Shown here: piece by piece, positions 925-8,204 of the stretch
Numbering within the stretch: position 1 is the first letter of the stretch
Layout: each line of letters starts with the position of its first letter
Assembly (NCBI GenBank): GCA_036012755.1
Contig: DASCPX010000135.1
Span: forward strand, 1-31,856
Direction: 5' to 3'
Length of the DNA stretch: 31,856 nucleotides
From: Myxococcota bacterium
Lineage (GTDB): Bacteria; Myxococcota_A; UBA796; CAJQPC01
Notes under the pieces: generated by a model
Told to the model about the DNA's origin: nothing
The model's database searches: none
What the model saw: only the letters and a program-made list of their open reading frames with translations
Made by a program: the position numbers and the translations under genes

Positions 925-1590
925 ATGAGCATGCTCCTTCTGCTTGCAGCCTGTGGCGACCCTGTCGCCATCCACGACTACACGGCGATCATCAACGTCG
1001 CGCCGGGTCACGGCACCGCGAACGTCGGCGTCGACACGATCATCCAGGTCACCTTCAACGACGACCTCGACGAGTCCAGCCTCGCCGGCGCGATGTGGGT
1101 CGAGGATATCGCCGGCACGCCGGTGACCGCGCTGATGGACTACGACAGCTCGACGCGCACGGTGCACGTAGAGCCGAACGAGGACCTCGAGCGCGACTCC
1201 ATCTACAACGTCGTGGTCACGACCGGTGTCACCGGAGAGGCCTACGGACCGGTGCCTGCCGACATCACGACCTCCTTCTGGACGATCGGCCCCGGCCCCG
1301 CCGGGGGCAACCAGGCCCCGGTCGCGGTGATCAGCGAGCTCGACGCCGTCTGTGTCGTCGGCGAGCCCTATCCCCTGGACGGCGAGGCCAGCTACGACCC
1401 GGACGACGACGAGCTCACCTACCTCTGGCGCATCGTGACAGGCCCCGGCTCCGCCTTCGTCGACCTCTCGGACCAGCCCACAGCCAGCCTGAACACCGAC
1501 GATGGAGCGGTCTTCGTCATCGGCCTGGTCGTGTACGACGGCGCGATCGAGTCCTCGGAAGACTACCTGCGGGTCCAGTGCTTCGAGTAG
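925..1590 (+). CDS. Lipoprotein with bacterial Ig-like (Big_5-type) and PKD-like domains
   Basis: Lipobox LLAAC; Ig-like pattern P.hGt.nV.vDT.I.VTFndDLD...L...s.Y.v.v; PKD-like NQAPVA...LDGEASYDPDDDELTYLW...LVVYDG. The start may be ATG 931, which has AGGA upstream. Confidence 0.8.
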   Translation: MSMLLLLAACGDPVAIHDYTAIINVAPGHGTANVGVDTIIQVTFNDDLDESSLAGAMWVEDIAGTPVTALMDYDSSTRTVHVEPNEDLERDSIYNVVVTTGVTGEAYGPVPADITTSFWTIGPGPAGGNQAPVAVISELDAVCVVGEPYPLDGEASYDPDDDELTYLWRIVTGPGSAFVDLSDQPTASLNTDDGAVFVIGLVVYDGAIESSEDYLRVQCFE

Positions 1591-1594
1591 GAGC

Positions 1595-3076
1595 TCAGTG
1601 GCGGACGCGGGGCAGGTACTCCTCGTAGACGAAGGCGCCCTCGTCGCGCTCACCGTCGTGACAGCTCGTGCAGATCGCCTTCGCCGGCGGGTTCATGGTG
1701 TGGCCCTTGTCCTCGTCGGCCAGGTGCTCCTCGCCCGGGCCGTGGCATGACTCGCAGCCGACGTTCTTCAGGGGTCCGACGTCGTGAGCGGTCGTCGGAC
1801 CGCCCATGCCCGCACCGGTGACGTGGCAGCTGAAGCAGTCGGACTCGAGGTGCCGTCGAGCCTTCACCAAGGTGTCGTAGGCCTGGGCGTGCCCGGTGGT
1901 AGTCCACTGCTCGTACTGGGTCGTGTGGCACCCGCGGCATGACTGCGAGCCCAGGAAGGGGCCGCTCGGTGCATCGCTCTCGACGACGGGCGGTGCCAGC
2001 CCGCTGATGGCCTCCTTCGTCGCCTGGACCATGACGTCGGTAGCCGCGTGACCGTCGTACTTCGTGTCCAGGGGCACGAGCTGGTTCTGGAAGCTGTGGG
2101 CGAGCACCTCTGGCGCGGACTCCAGGGCAAGGATCTCGGCGCGGACCTCTGCGAGCTCGGCCTCGTAGTAGTCGATGCGCGTCTGGTATCGAGCGCTCAG
2201 GGTCTCGTCGTCGGCCCCGTCGAGGTCCGCGCGAGCCTTGGCGAGCCGCTCCTCCAGCCGGTCCCGCTCCTCCTCCAGCTGAACGGCTCCGCCAGCGTCG
2301 ATCCAGGACTCCGCTCCCTCGACGAAGGTCATGCGGAGCCAGCCGAGCTTCTTGCTGCGCGAGCCGCTGGCGAGGTGAAAGCCCCCGCCGTCGAGCGGCC
2401 GTGGGTTGCCCCAGGACTGGCGACCGTGACCGTTGACGATGAAGTCGATGCCCTCGACGTCGCGAGAGATCGCCTGGTCCACCGCCGAGGTGGAGTGGCT
2501 GACGAGCACGACGACGTCGACGTCACCGAGCTCCTCTACGCCCTGGGCCGCTGCCGCCTTGGGCTGGGCGCTGAGCTCGCAGCCCTCTCCAGGCACGCCC
2601 ACGACACCGATGAGCCCGATGGTGTGCCCCCCACGCTCGACGGTGCGGGTCAGCGGCCAGGTGGTGGTCCCGCAGACGAGGTTTCCCGCCAGGACCGGGA
2701 TGCCATGGTCCGTCGTGAGCCTGGAGAAGGCCTGGAGACCCAGGGCGAGGTCGCCCTCTCCCGGGACCATGGCGTCGACGCCTCCGAGAGCGAAGGCCCT
2801 CGCCTGGAGCTCCGCCTTCAGCAGCCGCTGCTCCACGTCGGCCTTCGGCAGACTCGAGCTCTTCCAGAACAGGTCGCCGCCGTCGACGACCACGCGGACC
2901 TCGTCGCCTCGCGCCTCGAGCAGACTGTTGCGCCTGGACAGACCGCCCAGCGGCTTCTTGGGTCAGCCACAGGGCTCGATCTCACCGTCCACGTTCGCCG
3001 AGTAGACCAGGGCGATGTGGTCGGCGGGCTCATCCTCTGCGGGAGCCTCGGAGCACGCGAGGAGCAAGGAGATCAC
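1595..3076 (-). CDS. Selenocysteine-containing UshA-like lipoprotein fused to a tetraheme (c554-like) cytochrome c domain, 493 aa, U38
   Basis: GTG at 3076 overlaps the upstream stop (GTGA). The frame reads MISLLLAC...YSANVDGEIEPCG-TGA-PKKPLGGLSRR...VVVDGGDLF and continues into the 1595..2893 ORF. A SECIS-like hairpin follows the TGA. Heme motifs: CRGCH, CFSCH, CESCH, CTSCH. Confidence 0.9.
2931..2952 (-). promoter_or_regulatory. Bacterial SECIS-like hairpin
   Basis: mRNA: UGA-CCCAAGAAGC-CG-CUGGGC-[GGUCU]-GUCCAG-G-CG. A 6-bp upper stem (one G-U pair) extends by 2 bp past a bulged G. The loop starts 18 nt after UGA and resembles the GGUC(U) apical loop of the E. coli fdhF SECIS. Confidence 0.8.
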
Positions 3077-4569
3077 TGGCCCTCCGCGCCCTCATCCAGA
3101 CCGGGCAGCTCCTTGCCCATCTCGTCCTCCATCTTCTCGCGGCGCTCCTGGGTCTCGGCCACCTTCTTCTTCTTGCGGCGCTGCTCTCTGAGGGCGTCCT
3201 CGAGCACCGACTGGATCGACCAGTCGACGAGGTAGACATTGGGCTCGCCCTCGAGCATCACGTAGAGCCGGCGGACCTGCCGGTCCTCGAAGTCGGTGCG
3301 CTCGGGGCCCGCGTCACCGATGAGGACGACCTTGGTGTTGCCGACATCGTCCGACGCGGCGATGCGAGCGGTGGGGGCGTCGAGGCCGTAGGGCGCCAGC
3401 GACCTCGGGTCGTCGTCGACGAACTCCTCGGCCTCCAGGCTGGTCACTCGTGAGGCGAGCCGGCGCGGCGTGGAGCCGGGCACGGGGCTTCCGTCCCACC
3501 ACTGCCAGACGTCACCGACCTTGCGCAGCGTGACCTCCTCTCCGACCAGGGCGTCGTCGTCGTCAGAGCGCAGCAGCGTACCGACGACCTGGACGACGTC
3601 GTCCTCGTCGAGCTCGACGACGCGGGCCTCGCGCAGCCGCTCCGTGTCGACGAGGAAGTCCTCGAGCATCTGGTCCTTCGCCGTGTACACGGTGCCGTCG
3701 CCTTCCAGCATCATGTAGGCCACCGGCGGATCGGAGTCGTCGATCAAGCGCGTCCCGACGAGCAGGGTCATCGGCTCCCGGGTCCCGAAGGCGATGGTGA
3801 TGCGAGCCCTCGGAGGCTCCAGTCCGTAGTCGGCGAGGTCGTCGGGGTCGTCGACGACGAAGTCCGTGGCCTTGAGCGCGCCGACGCGACCGAGCAGGGA
3901 GCGGGCCTTGTCCAGGGACACCGCCATCTCGCTCGGCTCGAGCATGACCCAGCGCTTCTCTCCGGTGCGCTGGAGCTTCAGGCGACGACCCCCGGGGAGG
4001 TCCGCCTCGATGAGGTCCGCGTCCTTGCTGTTGAAGCCGGCGAAGCGCCGCTCGCGGAAGTCGTCGAAGTCCAGCGAGTAGTAGTCCACGGCGGACTTCT
4101 TGACGGTGTAGATCGTCTCGCCCGGGAGTGGCTGGATGTAGTAGCTGACAGCGCTGGGGTTCGGGTCGCCCCCATAGAACTCGATGTTCGCGCCGTCCCG
4201 CATCGTCAGCGTCACGTGCACGCGCTGAGAGGGTCCCAGGCCGTAGAGCGCCGGCTCCTTGGTGTCCTCGACGACCTGGGCGCGGGCTGTGAGGTCGTGC
4301 AGCTGGTGCTTGACCCGGTTGACCATCGACTTGCTGGCCCGGAAGCCGGTCTCCTCGATGACCCAGCCGGTGTCGGTCTCGCTCAGGGTGATCTCGCTGC
4401 CGTCGGGCCGCAGCACGTGCGCCTTCACGAGATCCTGCTTCTCGAAGACGTAGATGGCTCGGTCGGCGTCCTCGCCGACCTGCTCCGGGGGCTTCTCGAC
4501 GAAGACCACGAAGATGATGACGGCGATGAGCACCAGCGCCGCAAGGAGGGTCCCGCGGAAGGTCTTCAT
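3073..4569 (-). CDS. DUF4340-type protein (N-terminal membrane anchor, repeated periplasmic domains), 498 aa
   Basis: The start is re-called to ATG 4569 (MKTFRGTLLAALVLIAV, GGAGAG upstream, ATGA overlap with the GldG-like stop). Three internal repeats carry the L..YGL..P...i motif. It lies downstream of a GldG-like gene, as is typical. Confidence 0.85.
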   Translation of the reverse strand: MKTFRGTLLAALVLIAVIIFVVFVEKPPEQVGEDADRAIYVFEKQDLVKAHVLRPDGSEITLSETDTGWVIEETGFRASKSMVNRVKHQLHDLTARAQVVEDTKEPALYGLGPSQRVHVTLTMRDGANIEFYGGDPNPSAVSYYIQPLPGETIYTVKKSAVDYYSLDFDDFRERRFAGFNSKDADLIEADLPGGRRLKLQRTGEKRWVMLEPSEMAVSLDKARSLLGRVGALKATDFVVDDPDDLADYGLEPPRARITIAFGTREPMTLLVGTRLIDDSDPPVAYMMLEGDGTVYTAKDQMLEDFLVDTERLREARVVELDEDDVVQVVGTLLRSDDDDALVGEEVTLRKVGDVWQWWDGSPVPGSTPRRLASRVTSLEAEEFVDDDPRSLAPYGLDAPTARIAASDDVGNTKVVLIGDAGPERTDFEDRQVRRLYVMLEGEPNVYLVDWSIQSVLEDALREQRRKKKKVAETQERREKMEDEMGKELPGLDEGAEGQ

Positions 4570-6041
4570 CGTCCTCTCCTGCTGGCCCAGACCCCGGCTC
4601 CGACGAGCAGCGTCAACATCGGGAACAGCCCGAGGACCATCCACAGGATGCGGTTGTTGTCCTCTTCGGTGAGCGCCAGCCGGCGGACCGAGGTCGGGCT
4701 ACCGATGAGGCTGATCCTGGCGTCGTCCCAGACGAGCCAGCGGAAGGCGTTGACAGCGAAGGTCGCGTTGCCCGGTCCCTCGGCGAGCAGGTCGTTGGTG
4801 GCGAAGTCCGAGTCGCCGATGACGAGCACCCGGGAGACGCGCTTGCCGGCGTTGACGATGGACTCCCCGCCAGGCTGGAGCTCCAGGGCCCAGGCGAAGG
4901 TGACCGGTCCGGCGAGGTCGATGTCCGGCTCGTAGACGCCGCCACCGCCCACCTCGAGCTGACCACCACGGTCGATCCAGCCATCGCGCGAGGTCTTCAG
5001 GACCTCTTTGGCCCGCATCCACTCCGGGGGTTCGTCCGGGAGGCGGACTCCGGCGATGTGGTCGAGCACGGTGAGCATGTGCTCGTCGCGGAGCTCGTCG
5101 ACGGTCGAGTGCCTGGCGTACTGGACCACCGGGCGTCCCTTGAAGGGGGCGATGAACTGCACGTCGGCCACGATGCCCTCTGGCACGGTCACGTCCAGGC
5201 GCTCGAGCACTGTCGGCAGCGGCGTGCCGGGGTCGAGGAGCACCATCAGCGCTCCCCCGCCGGCGACATAGGCGACCAGCGCGTCATCGACGCCCTGGGT
5301 CAGGGGGGCCTTCGGCGCGGCGACGAGCAGGCCGCTGGCGTCAACGGGCACGATGGGGATGCCGGCGGCGTCGCGATCCCGGTAGGGGTCCCAGACCTCG
5401 AGCTCGTAGTTCTCGTTGTCCAGCAGATCGACGAGCTCGGAGAGTCCGTCCGGGCCGGGCTCCTCTGGGTCCTTCTCCCCGTGTCCCCGCAGCATGTAGA
5501 CCGTGCGCCGCCGCTTCGAGAGGAGCTGGGAGGCGGCGCGGTTGAAGCTGGCCTCGCCAAGGAACTCCAGCCTCCGGTCAGCTCCCTTGCCGACGTTGCG
5601 AAAGAGCTCGCGGGCCTTGACGTCGACGCGCTCGTCGCCGCGCTTGATGACCATGTGGCCGTACTCGCGCACGCCGAGGTTCTCCGCCGTGAGCCGCTCC
5701 TTGTCGAAGTCGACCCAGTCGGTCTCGACCGCGCTGGACTGGTAGTCGAGCTCCAACAGCAGGTCCCGCATCGCCCGGTTCTTGAAGTAGGTGTCCTTCT
5801 TGCCGTCCTGGAAGGTGAAGGCCGTGACCTGGACCAGCTCGCCCTCCTCGTCGAGGCCGCCGAGCTTCTTCAGGGTGTCCTTCTGGAGCTGGTTCGCGCC
5901 GGACTCGGAGACGTCGATCCTGACGCGGTTCCGGTCCGCGATGCCGTAGAGCACGCCGACGAGCACGACGACGAGCACGGTCACCAGGGTGGCGTTGCCC
6001 CCATGGGCGAGGGCGCGACGGACGTTCCTGCTCAGCGCCAT
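4566..6041 (-). CDS. GldG-family ABC transporter auxiliary component, 491 aa
   Basis: The start is re-called to ATG 6041 (MALSRNVRR). N-terminal TM followed by RIDVS; YMLRGHGEK; RVLVIGDSDFATN...GNATFAVNAFRWL; C-terminal TM ending W...RR. Confidence 0.88.
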   Translation of the reverse strand: MALSRNVRRALAHGGNATLVTVLVVVLVGVLYGIADRNRVRIDVSESGANQLQKDTLKKLGGLDEEGELVQVTAFTFQDGKKDTYFKNRAMRDLLLELDYQSSAVETDWVDFDKERLTAENLGVREYGHMVIKRGDERVDVKARELFRNVGKGADRRLEFLGEASFNRAASQLLSKRRRTVYMLRGHGEKDPEEPGPDGLSELVDLLDNENYELEVWDPYRDRDAAGIPIVPVDASGLLVAAPKAPLTQGVDDALVAYVAGGGALMVLLDPGTPLPTVLERLDVTVPEGIVADVQFIAPFKGRPVVQYARHSTVDELRDEHMLTVLDHIAGVRLPDEPPEWMRAKEVLKTSRDGWIDRGGQLEVGGGGVYEPDIDLAGPVTFAWALELQPGGESIVNAGKRVSRVLVIGDSDFATNDLLAEGPGNATFAVNAFRWLVWDDARISLIGSPTSVRRLALTEEDNNRILWMVLGLFPMLTLLVGAGVWASRRGR

Positions 6042-6742
6042 CGTCGACTCTCGAGCGCTCGGTAGGTCAGGAACAGGAACACGAAGGTGAAGGCGACGAA
6101 GTAGAGGATGTCCGCGGAGTCGATGACTCCCTTCGTGAAGCCGCGGAGGTGCGGCAACAGCGCCAGCTGGTCCAACACGGCCTGGGCCTTGTCGCCGACG
6201 AGCGCGCCCGCGGAGCCGATCATCCAGAAGGGCAGCAGCATCACGATGCCGCCCATGCCCGCGGCCACCTGGTCGTTCGTCAGGCTGGAGGCGAAGATCC
6301 CGGTCGCGCAGAAGGCCGCGCAGACGAGCAGCAGGCCGAGGTAGCTGGTCCCGACGATGCCCCAGTCCGGGTCGCCGTAGTAGGCCAGGATGGCCGGGAA
6401 CAGAAGCGTGCCCGCCAGCATCAACACGCACATCGCCAGCGACGCCAGCCACTTGCCGACGATGAGGCTCACCGGGGACAGGGGCGAGGTCATCAACAGC
6501 TCGAAGGTGCCGCTGTCCTGTTCCTCCGCGAAGTGCCGCATGGTCAGCATCGGCAGCACGAAGATCAAGGCGACGGCGAGGTTTCCGAGCATCACCCGCA
6601 GGCTCGCCTCCCCCGTCAGCGCGACCCCCAGGTAGAAGAACATGCCCGCGATGAGCAGGAAGACGCCGAGGAAGACGTAGGCCAGCGGCGAGACGAAGTA
6701 GACCCGCAGCTCCTTCTTGAAGATGGTCCAGACGGCCCTCAT
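6032..6742 (-). CDS. ABC-2 type transporter permease (GldF-like)
   Basis: MRAVWTIFKKELRVYFVSPLAY, LTMRHFAEEQDSGTFELLMTSP...IVGKWLA, ASSLTNDQVAA, C-terminal LESRRWR; about six TM segments. Confidence 0.93.
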   Translation of the reverse strand: MRAVWTIFKKELRVYFVSPLAYVFLGVFLLIAGMFFYLGVALTGEASLRVMLGNLAVALIFVLPMLTMRHFAEEQDSGTFELLMTSPLSPVSLIVGKWLASLAMCVLMLAGTLLFPAILAYYGDPDWGIVGTSYLGLLLVCAAFCATGIFASSLTNDQVAAGMGGIVMLLPFWMIGSAGALVGDKAQAVLDQLALLPHLRGFTKGVIDSADILYFVAFTFVFLFLTYRALESRRWR

Positions 6743-7650
6743 GCGCGCGCCTCGTGACCGACCAGGGCCAGGAAGGCGTCCTCCAGGGAGGGGACGACCT
6801 TCTCCAGGCTGACGAGGTCCCAGCCGTTTTCGACGACCATGCGCGCGATCGCCGGCCGCGGGTCCCGCGAAGCCCGCACGACCACCACCTCGCCAGGATC
6901 GACCTGGTCGACCTCTGGTAGGGTGCCGATGGCGACCGCGACGTCCACGCCACCTCGCACCTCGACCCGGTAGTGGGTCGGCGCGGCCTGCTCGCGGACC
7001 TCTTCCATCGTGCCCTTCGCGGCGATGTGGCCCTTGTCGATGACGACGACGTGAGAGCAGAGCTCCTCGACCTCTCGGAGGATGTGGGTTGAGAGCACGA
7101 CGGTGTGATCTCCGGCGAGGTCCTCGATCAACGCCCTGACCCCGACGACCTGGGCCGGATCGAGCCCGCTGGTGGGTTCGTCGAGGATGAGCACGGGGGG
7201 GTCGTGGACCAGGGCCTGCGCGAGCCCCACGCGCTGCCTGTAGCCCTTGGAGAGGCTGCCGGTGATGCGCCGCTCCCAGCCACGCAGGCCGACCCGCTCC
7301 ATGACCTCGCCGATGCGGCGGTCGGCTTCGGCCCCGCGGATGCCTCGCAGCTCCGCGACGAAGCGCAGGTAGGCGCCGACTGTGAGCTCACGGTACAGCG
7401 GCGGCCTCTCGGGCAGGTAGCCGACCCTCCGCTTGACCTCGATGGCGTCCTCGAAGACGTCGTGACCGGCCACTACCGCGGTGCCATCGGTCGCCGGCAG
7501 GAAGCCGGTGAGGACGCGCATGGTCGTGGTCTTCCCGGCGCCATTGGGGCCGATGAAGCCGAGGATCTGCCCCTCGCCGACGCAAAACTCCAAGTCTTCC
7601 ACGGCGGTGAAGGGGCCGTAGCGCTTGGTCAGCTTCTTGACTTCGATCAT
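6739..7650 (-). CDS. ABC transporter ATP-binding protein (GldA-like), 303 aa
   Basis: The start is re-called to ATG 7650 (MIEVKKLTKRYG). Walker A GPNGAGKTT, signature LSKGYRQR, Walker B LILDEPTSGLDP, H-loop LSTH. Confidence 0.95.
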   Translation of the reverse strand: MIEVKKLTKRYGPFTAVEDLEFCVGEGQILGFIGPNGAGKTTTMRVLTGFLPATDGTAVVAGHDVFEDAIEVKRRVGYLPERPPLYRELTVGAYLRFVAELRGIRGAEADRRIGEVMERVGLRGWERRITGSLSKGYRQRVGLAQALVHDPPVLILDEPTSGLDPAQVVGVRALIEDLAGDHTVVLSTHILREVEELCSHVVVIDKGHIAAKGTMEEVREQAAPTHYRVEVRGGVDVAVAIGTLPEVDQVDPGEVVVVRASRDPRPAIARMVVENGWDLVSLEKVVPSLEDAFLALVGHEARA

Positions 7651-7682
7651 CGCCTGCAGTGCGCCTGAGCGGAGGGAGTGTA

Positions 7683-8204
7683 ATGCTTCCGCCTGTGATG
7701 GCAAGCGGCCTGATAGCGCTGTGGTTGTACCTCTCCGTAGCCGCCGCGGAGACCGTCGATGTCCTGCTCTCGGTGGTCGGGACGCGGGTCGTGGCGGCCT
7801 CTGACGTCGCCTTCGAAGAGGCCTATGCAGCCCACGATGTGTCCCCCCTTCCACCCTTCGAGCAGGCCACCGACTGGCTGCTGGTCGTCGAGGACTACCG
7901 GAGACTCCGCGTCCTCGCCGGAGACGCGCGGCTCTTCCATCCCCCGGTCGCCAGCGTCGACGCTCGCCTGGCCGCGTTCTCGGACTCCTTCGACACGCGC
8001 GAGGACTACCGGGCCTTCCTCGCGACCTGGCAGCTCGACGAGGAGGCCCTGCGCGAGCACGTCTACGCCCGCATGGTCGTCGAGTCCTACGTGGGCCGTG
8101 CCCTCGGCGAGGTGGACGACCCCGTCACCTGGGACGCCGCGTGGCAGACCTGGATCGCAAACCAGCGCGAGGCGCTGCCCTCGAAGAGGCTGGAGGCACC
8201 ATGA
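7683..8204 (+). CDS. Secreted hypothetical protein, SurA N-terminal-like helical domain without a PPIase domain
   Basis: Signal peptide ending VAAA-E, then ETVDVLLSVVGTRVVAASDV, which resembles the SurA_N start, and F...E.YRAFL.....L.EEALREHV. The start is uncertain (7683, 7695 or 7698). Confidence 0.6.
   Translation: MLPPVMASGLIALWLYLSVAAAETVDVLLSVVGTRVVAASDVAFEEAYAAHDVSPLPPFEQATDWLLVVEDYRRLRVLAGDARLFHPPVASVDARLAAFSDSFDTREDYRAFLATWQLDEEALREHVYARMVVESYVGRALGEVDDPVTWDAAWQTWIANQREALPSKRLEAP

Follow-up and report, generated by a model that had tools for sequence, protein, structure and literature searches.

The window, i.e. the whole stretch of 31,856 nucleotides from a Myxococcota bacterium, carries on its reverse strand a gene that joins a Cys-Gly-Sec motif, a 5'-nucleotidase-like fold and a tetraheme cytochrome domain (Table 1). 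Under genetic code table 11 the ORF list gives 1595..2893 (-), 432 aa; once TGA is read as U, the frame opens 61 codons earlier, at GTG 3076, and encodes 493 aa, which reproduces the extension proposed in the earlier note. It contains one internal TGA (2963-2965), residue 38, in the context EIEPCG-U-PKKPLGGL. At the start, GTG and the stop codon of the DUF4340 gene upstream share nucleotides (GTGA).

Table 1. Features of the gene and of its upstream neighbours, in positions of the window.
Feature	Position	Strand	Basis
Whole gene, TGA read as Sec, 493 aa	1595..3076	(-)	NF041198 match, residues 4-484 on model 7-518
Predicted lipoprotein signal, very short, with lipobox Cys8	3053..3076	(-)	Cys invariant in 20/20
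Cys36-Gly37-Sec38 motif, TGA at 2963-2965	2963..2971	(-)	TGA in all orthologue loci checked; Cys in homologues
SECIS-type hairpin, 6-bp stem, GGUCU loop	2934..2950	(-)	loop begins 21 nt after U of UGA
N-terminal fold of 5'-nucleotidase (UshA), catalytic His lost	2297..3022	(-)	AlphaFold and structure match to 2z1a
Two-helix coiled-coil insert, residues 263-319	2120..2290	(-)	AlphaFold model
Linker helix 344-358	2003..2047	(-)	AlphaFold; 5'-nucleotidase structural alignments extend past the helix
Cytochrome c554-type tetraheme domain	1598..1966	(-)	PF13435, 52 bits; 1bvb structure match
Heme 2 motif (residues 414-418), predicted open	1823-1837	(-)	ligand count
Axial ligand candidates: His384/418/445/473 proximal; His396/451/493 distal
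Upstream same-strand genes: ABC ATPase, GldF-like permease, GldG-like, DUF4340 protein	3073..7854	(-)	domain searches, TIGR03518 below cut-off; Walker A motif for the ABC ATPase
GldG-like gene	4566-6032	(-)	TIGR03518 below cut-off
DUF4340 gene	3073-4644	(-)	domain search

The TGA is present at this site in 20/20 top-scoring loci of relatives (own locus included) and in 14/14 further orthologue loci, all of them kin and hence non-independent. Homologues carry Cys opposite the TGA: this is the case, in the same context, of P0045, P0053 and P0055 (36-38% identity), and in alignment A3 of 105 database homologues Cys occupies the Sec column in all 29 proteins reaching it. The other 76 start after the Cys-Gly-Sec/Cys region, as expected if gene callers truncate such genes, a fate that had been foreseen for the present one. 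Among 98 locus proteins, chosen by a motif pattern that itself demands Cys or a stop at position 38, TGA is found in 41 and Cys in 57. The genome, 95.95% complete, holds selA, selB, selD (with its own TGA) and tRNA-Sec, all over cut-off, and selA is present in 40 of the 41 genomes searched. Two more Sec codons were observed in this genome, in a formate-dehydrogenase-like gene (G000:C59:125829 (+), labelled from its motif) and in selD (G000:C70:291416 (-)). A sequencing error is not suggested either by the assembled contigs of public marine runs (contigs, not raw reads), which display no mismatch across the TGA; two of them match, X5, which may be the DNA's own source, and X8, from a different study (2902-3052). 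Among the 20 runs listed, none that carries the sequence is of RNA.

The hairpin that follows the TGA, already noticed as SECIS-like, has a 4-bp core and a GGUCU loop that are invariant in 20/20 sequences. Gly44, Gly45 and Leu46 are each written with a single codon in 20/20 (GGC, GGT and CTG), and these are the only three of 48 conserved degenerate columns to be so; GGT represents 13% of the Gly codons in these genes, and the same three codons vary in the Cys paralogues. It is because these synonymous sites are invariant that we accept the hairpin as real. In addition, the formate-dehydrogenase-like gene displays a GGUCU loop at an equal offset after its Sec codon; the selD hairpin differs from it. 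The literature searched for this GGUCU loop offered no relevant result. By contrast, two other indications were negative: the hairpin is not more stable than its shuffles (z 0.22 to 0.76 in 4/4 windows), so that stability was dropped as a proof of SECIS, and the orthologue comparison revealed no two-sided compensatory change.

Could the TGA instead be a true stop, encode Trp or stem from a faulty assembly? The lack of stability over shuffles would fit a stop, and the pattern by itself is unspecific, with 83 TGA-plus-GGTCT hairpins genome-wide. This reading is nevertheless hardly credible in view of the TGA kept in every orthologue locus checked, the Cys of the homologues, the invariant synonymous sites, the full Sec machinery and the matching contig from another study; moreover the gene's own terminator is a TGA, hence TGA is not generally reassigned. 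The internal TGA thus very likely encodes selenocysteine, as the earlier note had it, and SelB would read the GGUCU hairpin to insert it.

The combination of the three parts is not new. The gene is a further member of the already catalogued NCBIfam family NF041198 (UshA_like_PCGU, 'UshA-like (seleno)protein'), which it matches with 291.7 bits for a cut-off of 275 (283.6 bits in the genome search); the match spans model positions 7-518 of 519 and residues 4-484, hemes included, and the P-C-G-U/C motif of the family lies near the N-terminus, as PCG-TGA here and with Cys in homologues. The three-part fusion pointed out previously is therefore real in its architecture, and what does not stand is its novelty, since NF041198 models it end to end. 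That it belongs to a recognised CxU/CxC family without assigned function agrees with the literature: the family is listed as UshA-like, CxU, in PMC13188914, and COG0737 UshA-like CxU in PMC2398784 and PMC9312934, the available text of these three sources giving no function. Our search, with most subscription journals and supplements outside it, returned family listings and no functional study. NF049981, UshA-like family 2, is matched below its cut-off (35.9 vs 140 bits).

It is a large family, whose profile is matched by 3,384 representative proteins with E up to 1e-30, a number that may include partial matches or other architectures. Cys-Gly-Cys four-heme relatives are found in records of Planctomycetota, Verrucomicrobiota, Myxococcota, Acidobacteriota, Armatimonadota and others, and Sec forms also in those of Desulfobulbaceae and Eisenbacteria. 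Four hemes are found in 91 of the 98 locus proteins, over many phyla, a count that may shift by one with the row of the window and that is favoured by a search pattern holding a heme motif. The genome itself encodes two Cys paralogues, at L108:7130-8509 (+) and L109:6799-7677 (-); one of the two has four hemes and forms a separate, well-supported clade, the other is heme-less. Three other proteins (P0219, P0234, P0242) are about 1,200 aa long; the two that we inspected contain two UshA-like Cys-x-Cys domains, a Cys-x-x-Cys or CPY middle and a C-terminal heme domain.

The predicted signal consists of seven hydrophobic residues before Cys8, with no basic n-region. Such starts are common in this genome: a scan for a lipobox Cys preceded by a very short hydrophobic stretch without charges gives 248 coding-like ORFs, against 5-28 when control residues replace Cys; another example lies in the window at 925-960 (+). 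A literature search on such short signals returned nothing relevant. The invariant Cys8 and this genome-wide pattern are in line with the lipoprotein start claimed earlier, with an anchor that stays predicted: the protein would be exported and lipidated at Cys8.

An AlphaFold model built on 125 sequences (pLDDT 92.8, pTM 0.89) places residues 19-360 in the fold of the 5'-nucleotidase N-terminal domain, with 263 residues aligned to 2z1a (Z 31.9, rmsd 2.2) and a match also to SoxB (Z 29.8). The degenerate motifs had been read correctly: DxH aligns to N28-V-D30 when compared with the genome's own canonical 5'-nucleotidase, and profile alignments to solved 5'-nucleotidases place GNHE on G106-E-G-D and GHxH on G216-H-G-R, GD being kept. 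The dimetal ligand set (DxH, GD, GNH, H, GHxH) and the catalytic His are thus not retained as such, and judging by these alignments the phosphoesterase catalytic residues are lost. The coiled-coil insert announced by the earlier note is a helical hairpin in the model, with the covarying pairs R282-E305 and R271-L308, and is missing in some orthologues (e.g. L122). The linker helix would take the place of the nucleotidase hinge helix.

The fold had also been called dead. This holds for the catalytic residues, and less so for the metal, of which candidate ligands remain: D68, H194 and H217, plus E107 as a substitute, occupy the ligand positions of one metal, and their columns covary. All four occur together in 73/249 relatives, where 12 would be expected if they were independent, and none of them in 62/249, these relatives being kin and not independent; among Sec loci only 10/36 have all four. 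The present protein may therefore retain a single metal, while the 62 relatives indicate that the family can do without. C36 is conserved, whereas the metal ligands vary. These data bear on the idea that the protein is a nucleotidase or phosphoesterase with its activity intact and a cytochrome attached. The best fold matches are indeed 5'-nucleotidases, some sources give homologues that name, and one metal site may persist; but the Asn-His of GNHE occurs in 0/249 relatives, its His alone in 9/249 and DxH in 2/141, and the cytochrome has replaced the substrate-binding domain, which makes this activity very improbable.

The C-terminal part contains the four CXXCH motifs announced, at residues 380, 414, 441 and 469, and is of the c554 type according to both PF13435 (cut-off 20.8 bits) and the structure match, in which residues 371-493 align with 1bvb 2-180 (Z 11.2, rmsd 2.6, 121 aligned, 34% identity). 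Cytochrome c assembly genes are also present in the genome, and the protein would be loaded with four c-hemes. His396 and His451 are found in 92/92 four-heme rows. At position 493, 72 of these rows have His, 12 Cys and 8 another residue, and no eighth conserved axial ligand appears in the 92. There are thus seven conserved ligands for eight axial sites, which suggests that heme 2 is open (five-coordinate), as in cytochrome c554. PMC6703420 identifies heme 2 as the active site of both c554 and OcwA, the site being open in OcwA; 10.1101/2022.02.24.481543 is cited too on this point. The rows with Cys at the last axial position (L112-L117, L060, L084, L095, L017, L049 and L085) give a hint of a His/Cys-ligated heme in these relatives. 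In P0100, P0105, P0108 and P0110 this heme domain is joined to redoxin domains; these are database proteins with redoxin Pfam families, and their c554-type tetraheme block is double, as it also is at L110:5830-7182 (+).

Do the hemes serve the Cys-Sec pair? Covariation, computed on 327 sequences and hence shallow, gives plausible contacts within domains and one inter-domain cluster: Q83 with A430, S412 and E411, D80 with D413, K354 with R408 and A406, and F70 with G440. Q83/D80 and K354/I357 are so linked, at overall ranks 55-165, to positions next to the heme-2 motif (406-413 and 430). Five of the top 20 inter-domain pairs fall inside a block that holds 2.3% of the pairs, a block drawn after the list had been seen, and most of the other top inter-domain pairs look like noise. 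This is a weak indication that the heme-2 motif docks on the helix after D68 and on the linker helix, i.e. on the old active-site face. Between the Cys-Gly-Sec loop and the heme domain, the 327 sequences revealed no covariation link.

On the other side, four of the four family-f2 orthologue loci examined (L118, L119, L120 and L121, in an ABC/DUF4340 context, L119 with a second internal TGA) keep Sec and have a proline-rich tail and no heme domain; in L120, Thr replaces Cys36 (Thr-Gly-Sec). In a quick tree (SH-aLRT only, first 330 residues; one spurious row, four loci present twice and a second copy of the present gene were removed, and L120, which escaped the pattern, is absent), three f2 orthologues nest inside the Sec clade, so that the loss of hemes looks secondary. 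This tree needs 4 Sec/Cys changes and is compatible with one origin. The existence of heme-less Sec orthologues means that heme coupling is not obligatory. The transfer of electrons from heme to Sec, put forward by the earlier note, thus gains a weak covariation and loses its necessity; we keep it as a supposition.

The genes upstream (the ABC ATPase being labelled from its Walker A motif and not from a family search) form a GldA/F/G-like ABC cluster, here in a non-Bacteroidota genome. A DUF4340 gene precedes the family gene in 18/19 and 10/14 orthologue loci; where the flank is long enough, GldA/F/G-like ABC genes are seen as well. As four family-f3 loci have no upstream ABC/DUF4340 genes and the distant phyla differ, we rejected the idea that the protein is a partner dedicated to the Gld-like ABC genes: the association is not obligatory. 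In distant loci the upstream gene encodes DUF4159 in 11/38 cases and DUF1573 in 8/38, and a thioredoxin-domain gene lies directly downstream in 8/37, from two related lineages; the present window has none. A conserved trio DUF4159 / UshA-like family / thioredoxin(-HEAT) was observed at L040, L045, L058, L065, L069, L071, L089 and L100, in Planctomycetota and Verrucomicrobiota records. Among the neighbours at distant loci (Pfam scan of 75 of 79 ORFs, the four short ones left out), no respiratory or sulfur-metabolism family is prominent. VKOR is present in 41/41 genomes and DsbB in 5/41; the protein is thus not needed as a general disulfide-forming enzyme, and a role as replacement for DsbB was rejected, there being no gap to fill.

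The reading that we favour, to which we give a little less than an even chance, is that of an envelope disulfide reductase or isomerase in which the protein's four hemes would recycle the Cys36-Sec38 pair. The heme domain would replace the substrate-binding domain of the nucleotidase and sit on the old active-site face, with the five-coordinate heme 2 nearest to it. One may then speculate that Sec38 attacks the S-S bond of a client, that Cys36 resolves the adduct into a strained Se-S ring, and that electrons from the heme chain reopen this ring; the reverse direction, a thiol oxidation with the hemes as sink, would also be possible. We think of a disulfide enzyme because Cys-x-Sec/Cys is conserved, thioredoxin domains recur as neighbours and redoxins as fusions, Cys-x-Cys peptides are active by themselves (they were able to replace protein disulfide isomerase in yeast, according to the accessible part of 10.64898/2026.01.27.701630), and MccSep offers a precedent. 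In a bolder version, which we consider rather unlikely, the protein would represent a second, independently evolved class of heme-fed selenoenzymes: the hinge of the nucleotidase would close the open, c554-type heme 2 onto the Cys-Gly-Sec loop, beside the remnant single-metal site, making it a direct envelope converter between cytochrome and disulfide, spread over many phyla and mostly in Cys form.

MccSep, whose fold is another one, could also be the model for a different chemistry, in which Sec38 at the open heme 2 cleaves a small molecule such as polysulfide, persulfide, thiosulfate or selenite. According to PMC13510729, MccSep combines a heme chain with Sec and with a Cys bound to heme; the Cys found at the last axial position of 12/92 relatives recalls it, the fold matches SoxB too, and R48 and K87, both invariant, are possible binding residues for an anion. 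However, R48 falls in the stretch constrained by the SECIS, SoxB chemistry requires the dimetal site that is lost here, the match to NF040886 (ExtKL) reaches only 17.4 bits for a cut-off of 250, and the 75 neighbour ORFs scanned include no sulfur-respiration or Sox family, so that we hold such an enzyme for unlikely. A metal-binding or sensing protein of the envelope, in which Cys36/Sec38 and D68/E107/H194/H217 hold a metal and the hemes set the redox state for the ABC/DUF4340 system, would account for the excess of complete, covarying ligand sets and for the frequent DUF4340 gene upstream. It agrees less well with the relatives devoid of all four ligands, with the few Sec loci that have them all (related sequences in both cases), with the f3 loci and with the other neighbours in distant phyla, and seems to us quite unlikely. 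It could be, finally, that the Cys-x-Sec domain works by itself as a thiol or peroxide enzyme, with hemes that are optional or have a separate job: heme-less Sec orthologues (one of them Thr-Gly-Sec) nested in the Sec clade point to it, as do the heme-less Cys paralogue of the same genome and NF049981, a shorter related family. The persistence of four hemes in nearly all locus proteins over many phyla, although favoured by the search pattern, makes it decidedly unlikely.

With the corrected gene model the protein regains its redox motif and, ahead of it, the signal with the predicted lipid anchor, all of which gene callers drop. If the hemes do recycle the Cys-x-Sec pair, the cell envelope would possess a redox route distinct from those of DsbB, VKOR and DsbD, and parallel to MccSep. 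The natural Cys forms, the heme-less forms and those with or without the metal site are ready comparisons. The present copy adds little beyond the other members of the family; what the analysis usefully adds is the candidate remnant of a metal site, the predicted opening of heme 2 and the Sec orthologues devoid of hemes.

Compared with NF041198, there is no architectural difference; the local traits are the 7-residue signal, the coiled-coil insert and the Gld-like ABC/DUF4340 context. With the N-terminal domain of UshA, CD73 and SoxB the protein shares the fold (Z 30-32, rmsd 2.2-2.5) and D68, H194 and H217 in place; unlike them it has lost DxH and the Asn-His of GNHE, carries a Cys-Gly-Sec loop after motif 1, and bears a cytochrome instead of the substrate-binding domain. 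The same four CXXCH in the same fold occur in Nitrosomonas europaea cytochrome c554 (1bvb) and in the OcwA c554 module (6i5b), which have three distal ligands for four hemes, a number equal to that of the candidates in the present domain; the latter differs from c554 in being shorter and fused, and scores 41 bits for an equivalog cut-off of 400. The MccSep / ExtKL polysulfide reductase (NF040886; PMC13510729) is likewise an exported protein that carries Sec together with c-type hemes on a single chain, and is in this respect the precedent for heme-fed Sec chemistry; it differs by its five hemes, its heme-bound Cys and the absence of a nucleotidase fold, the weak match between the two being confined to the heme region.
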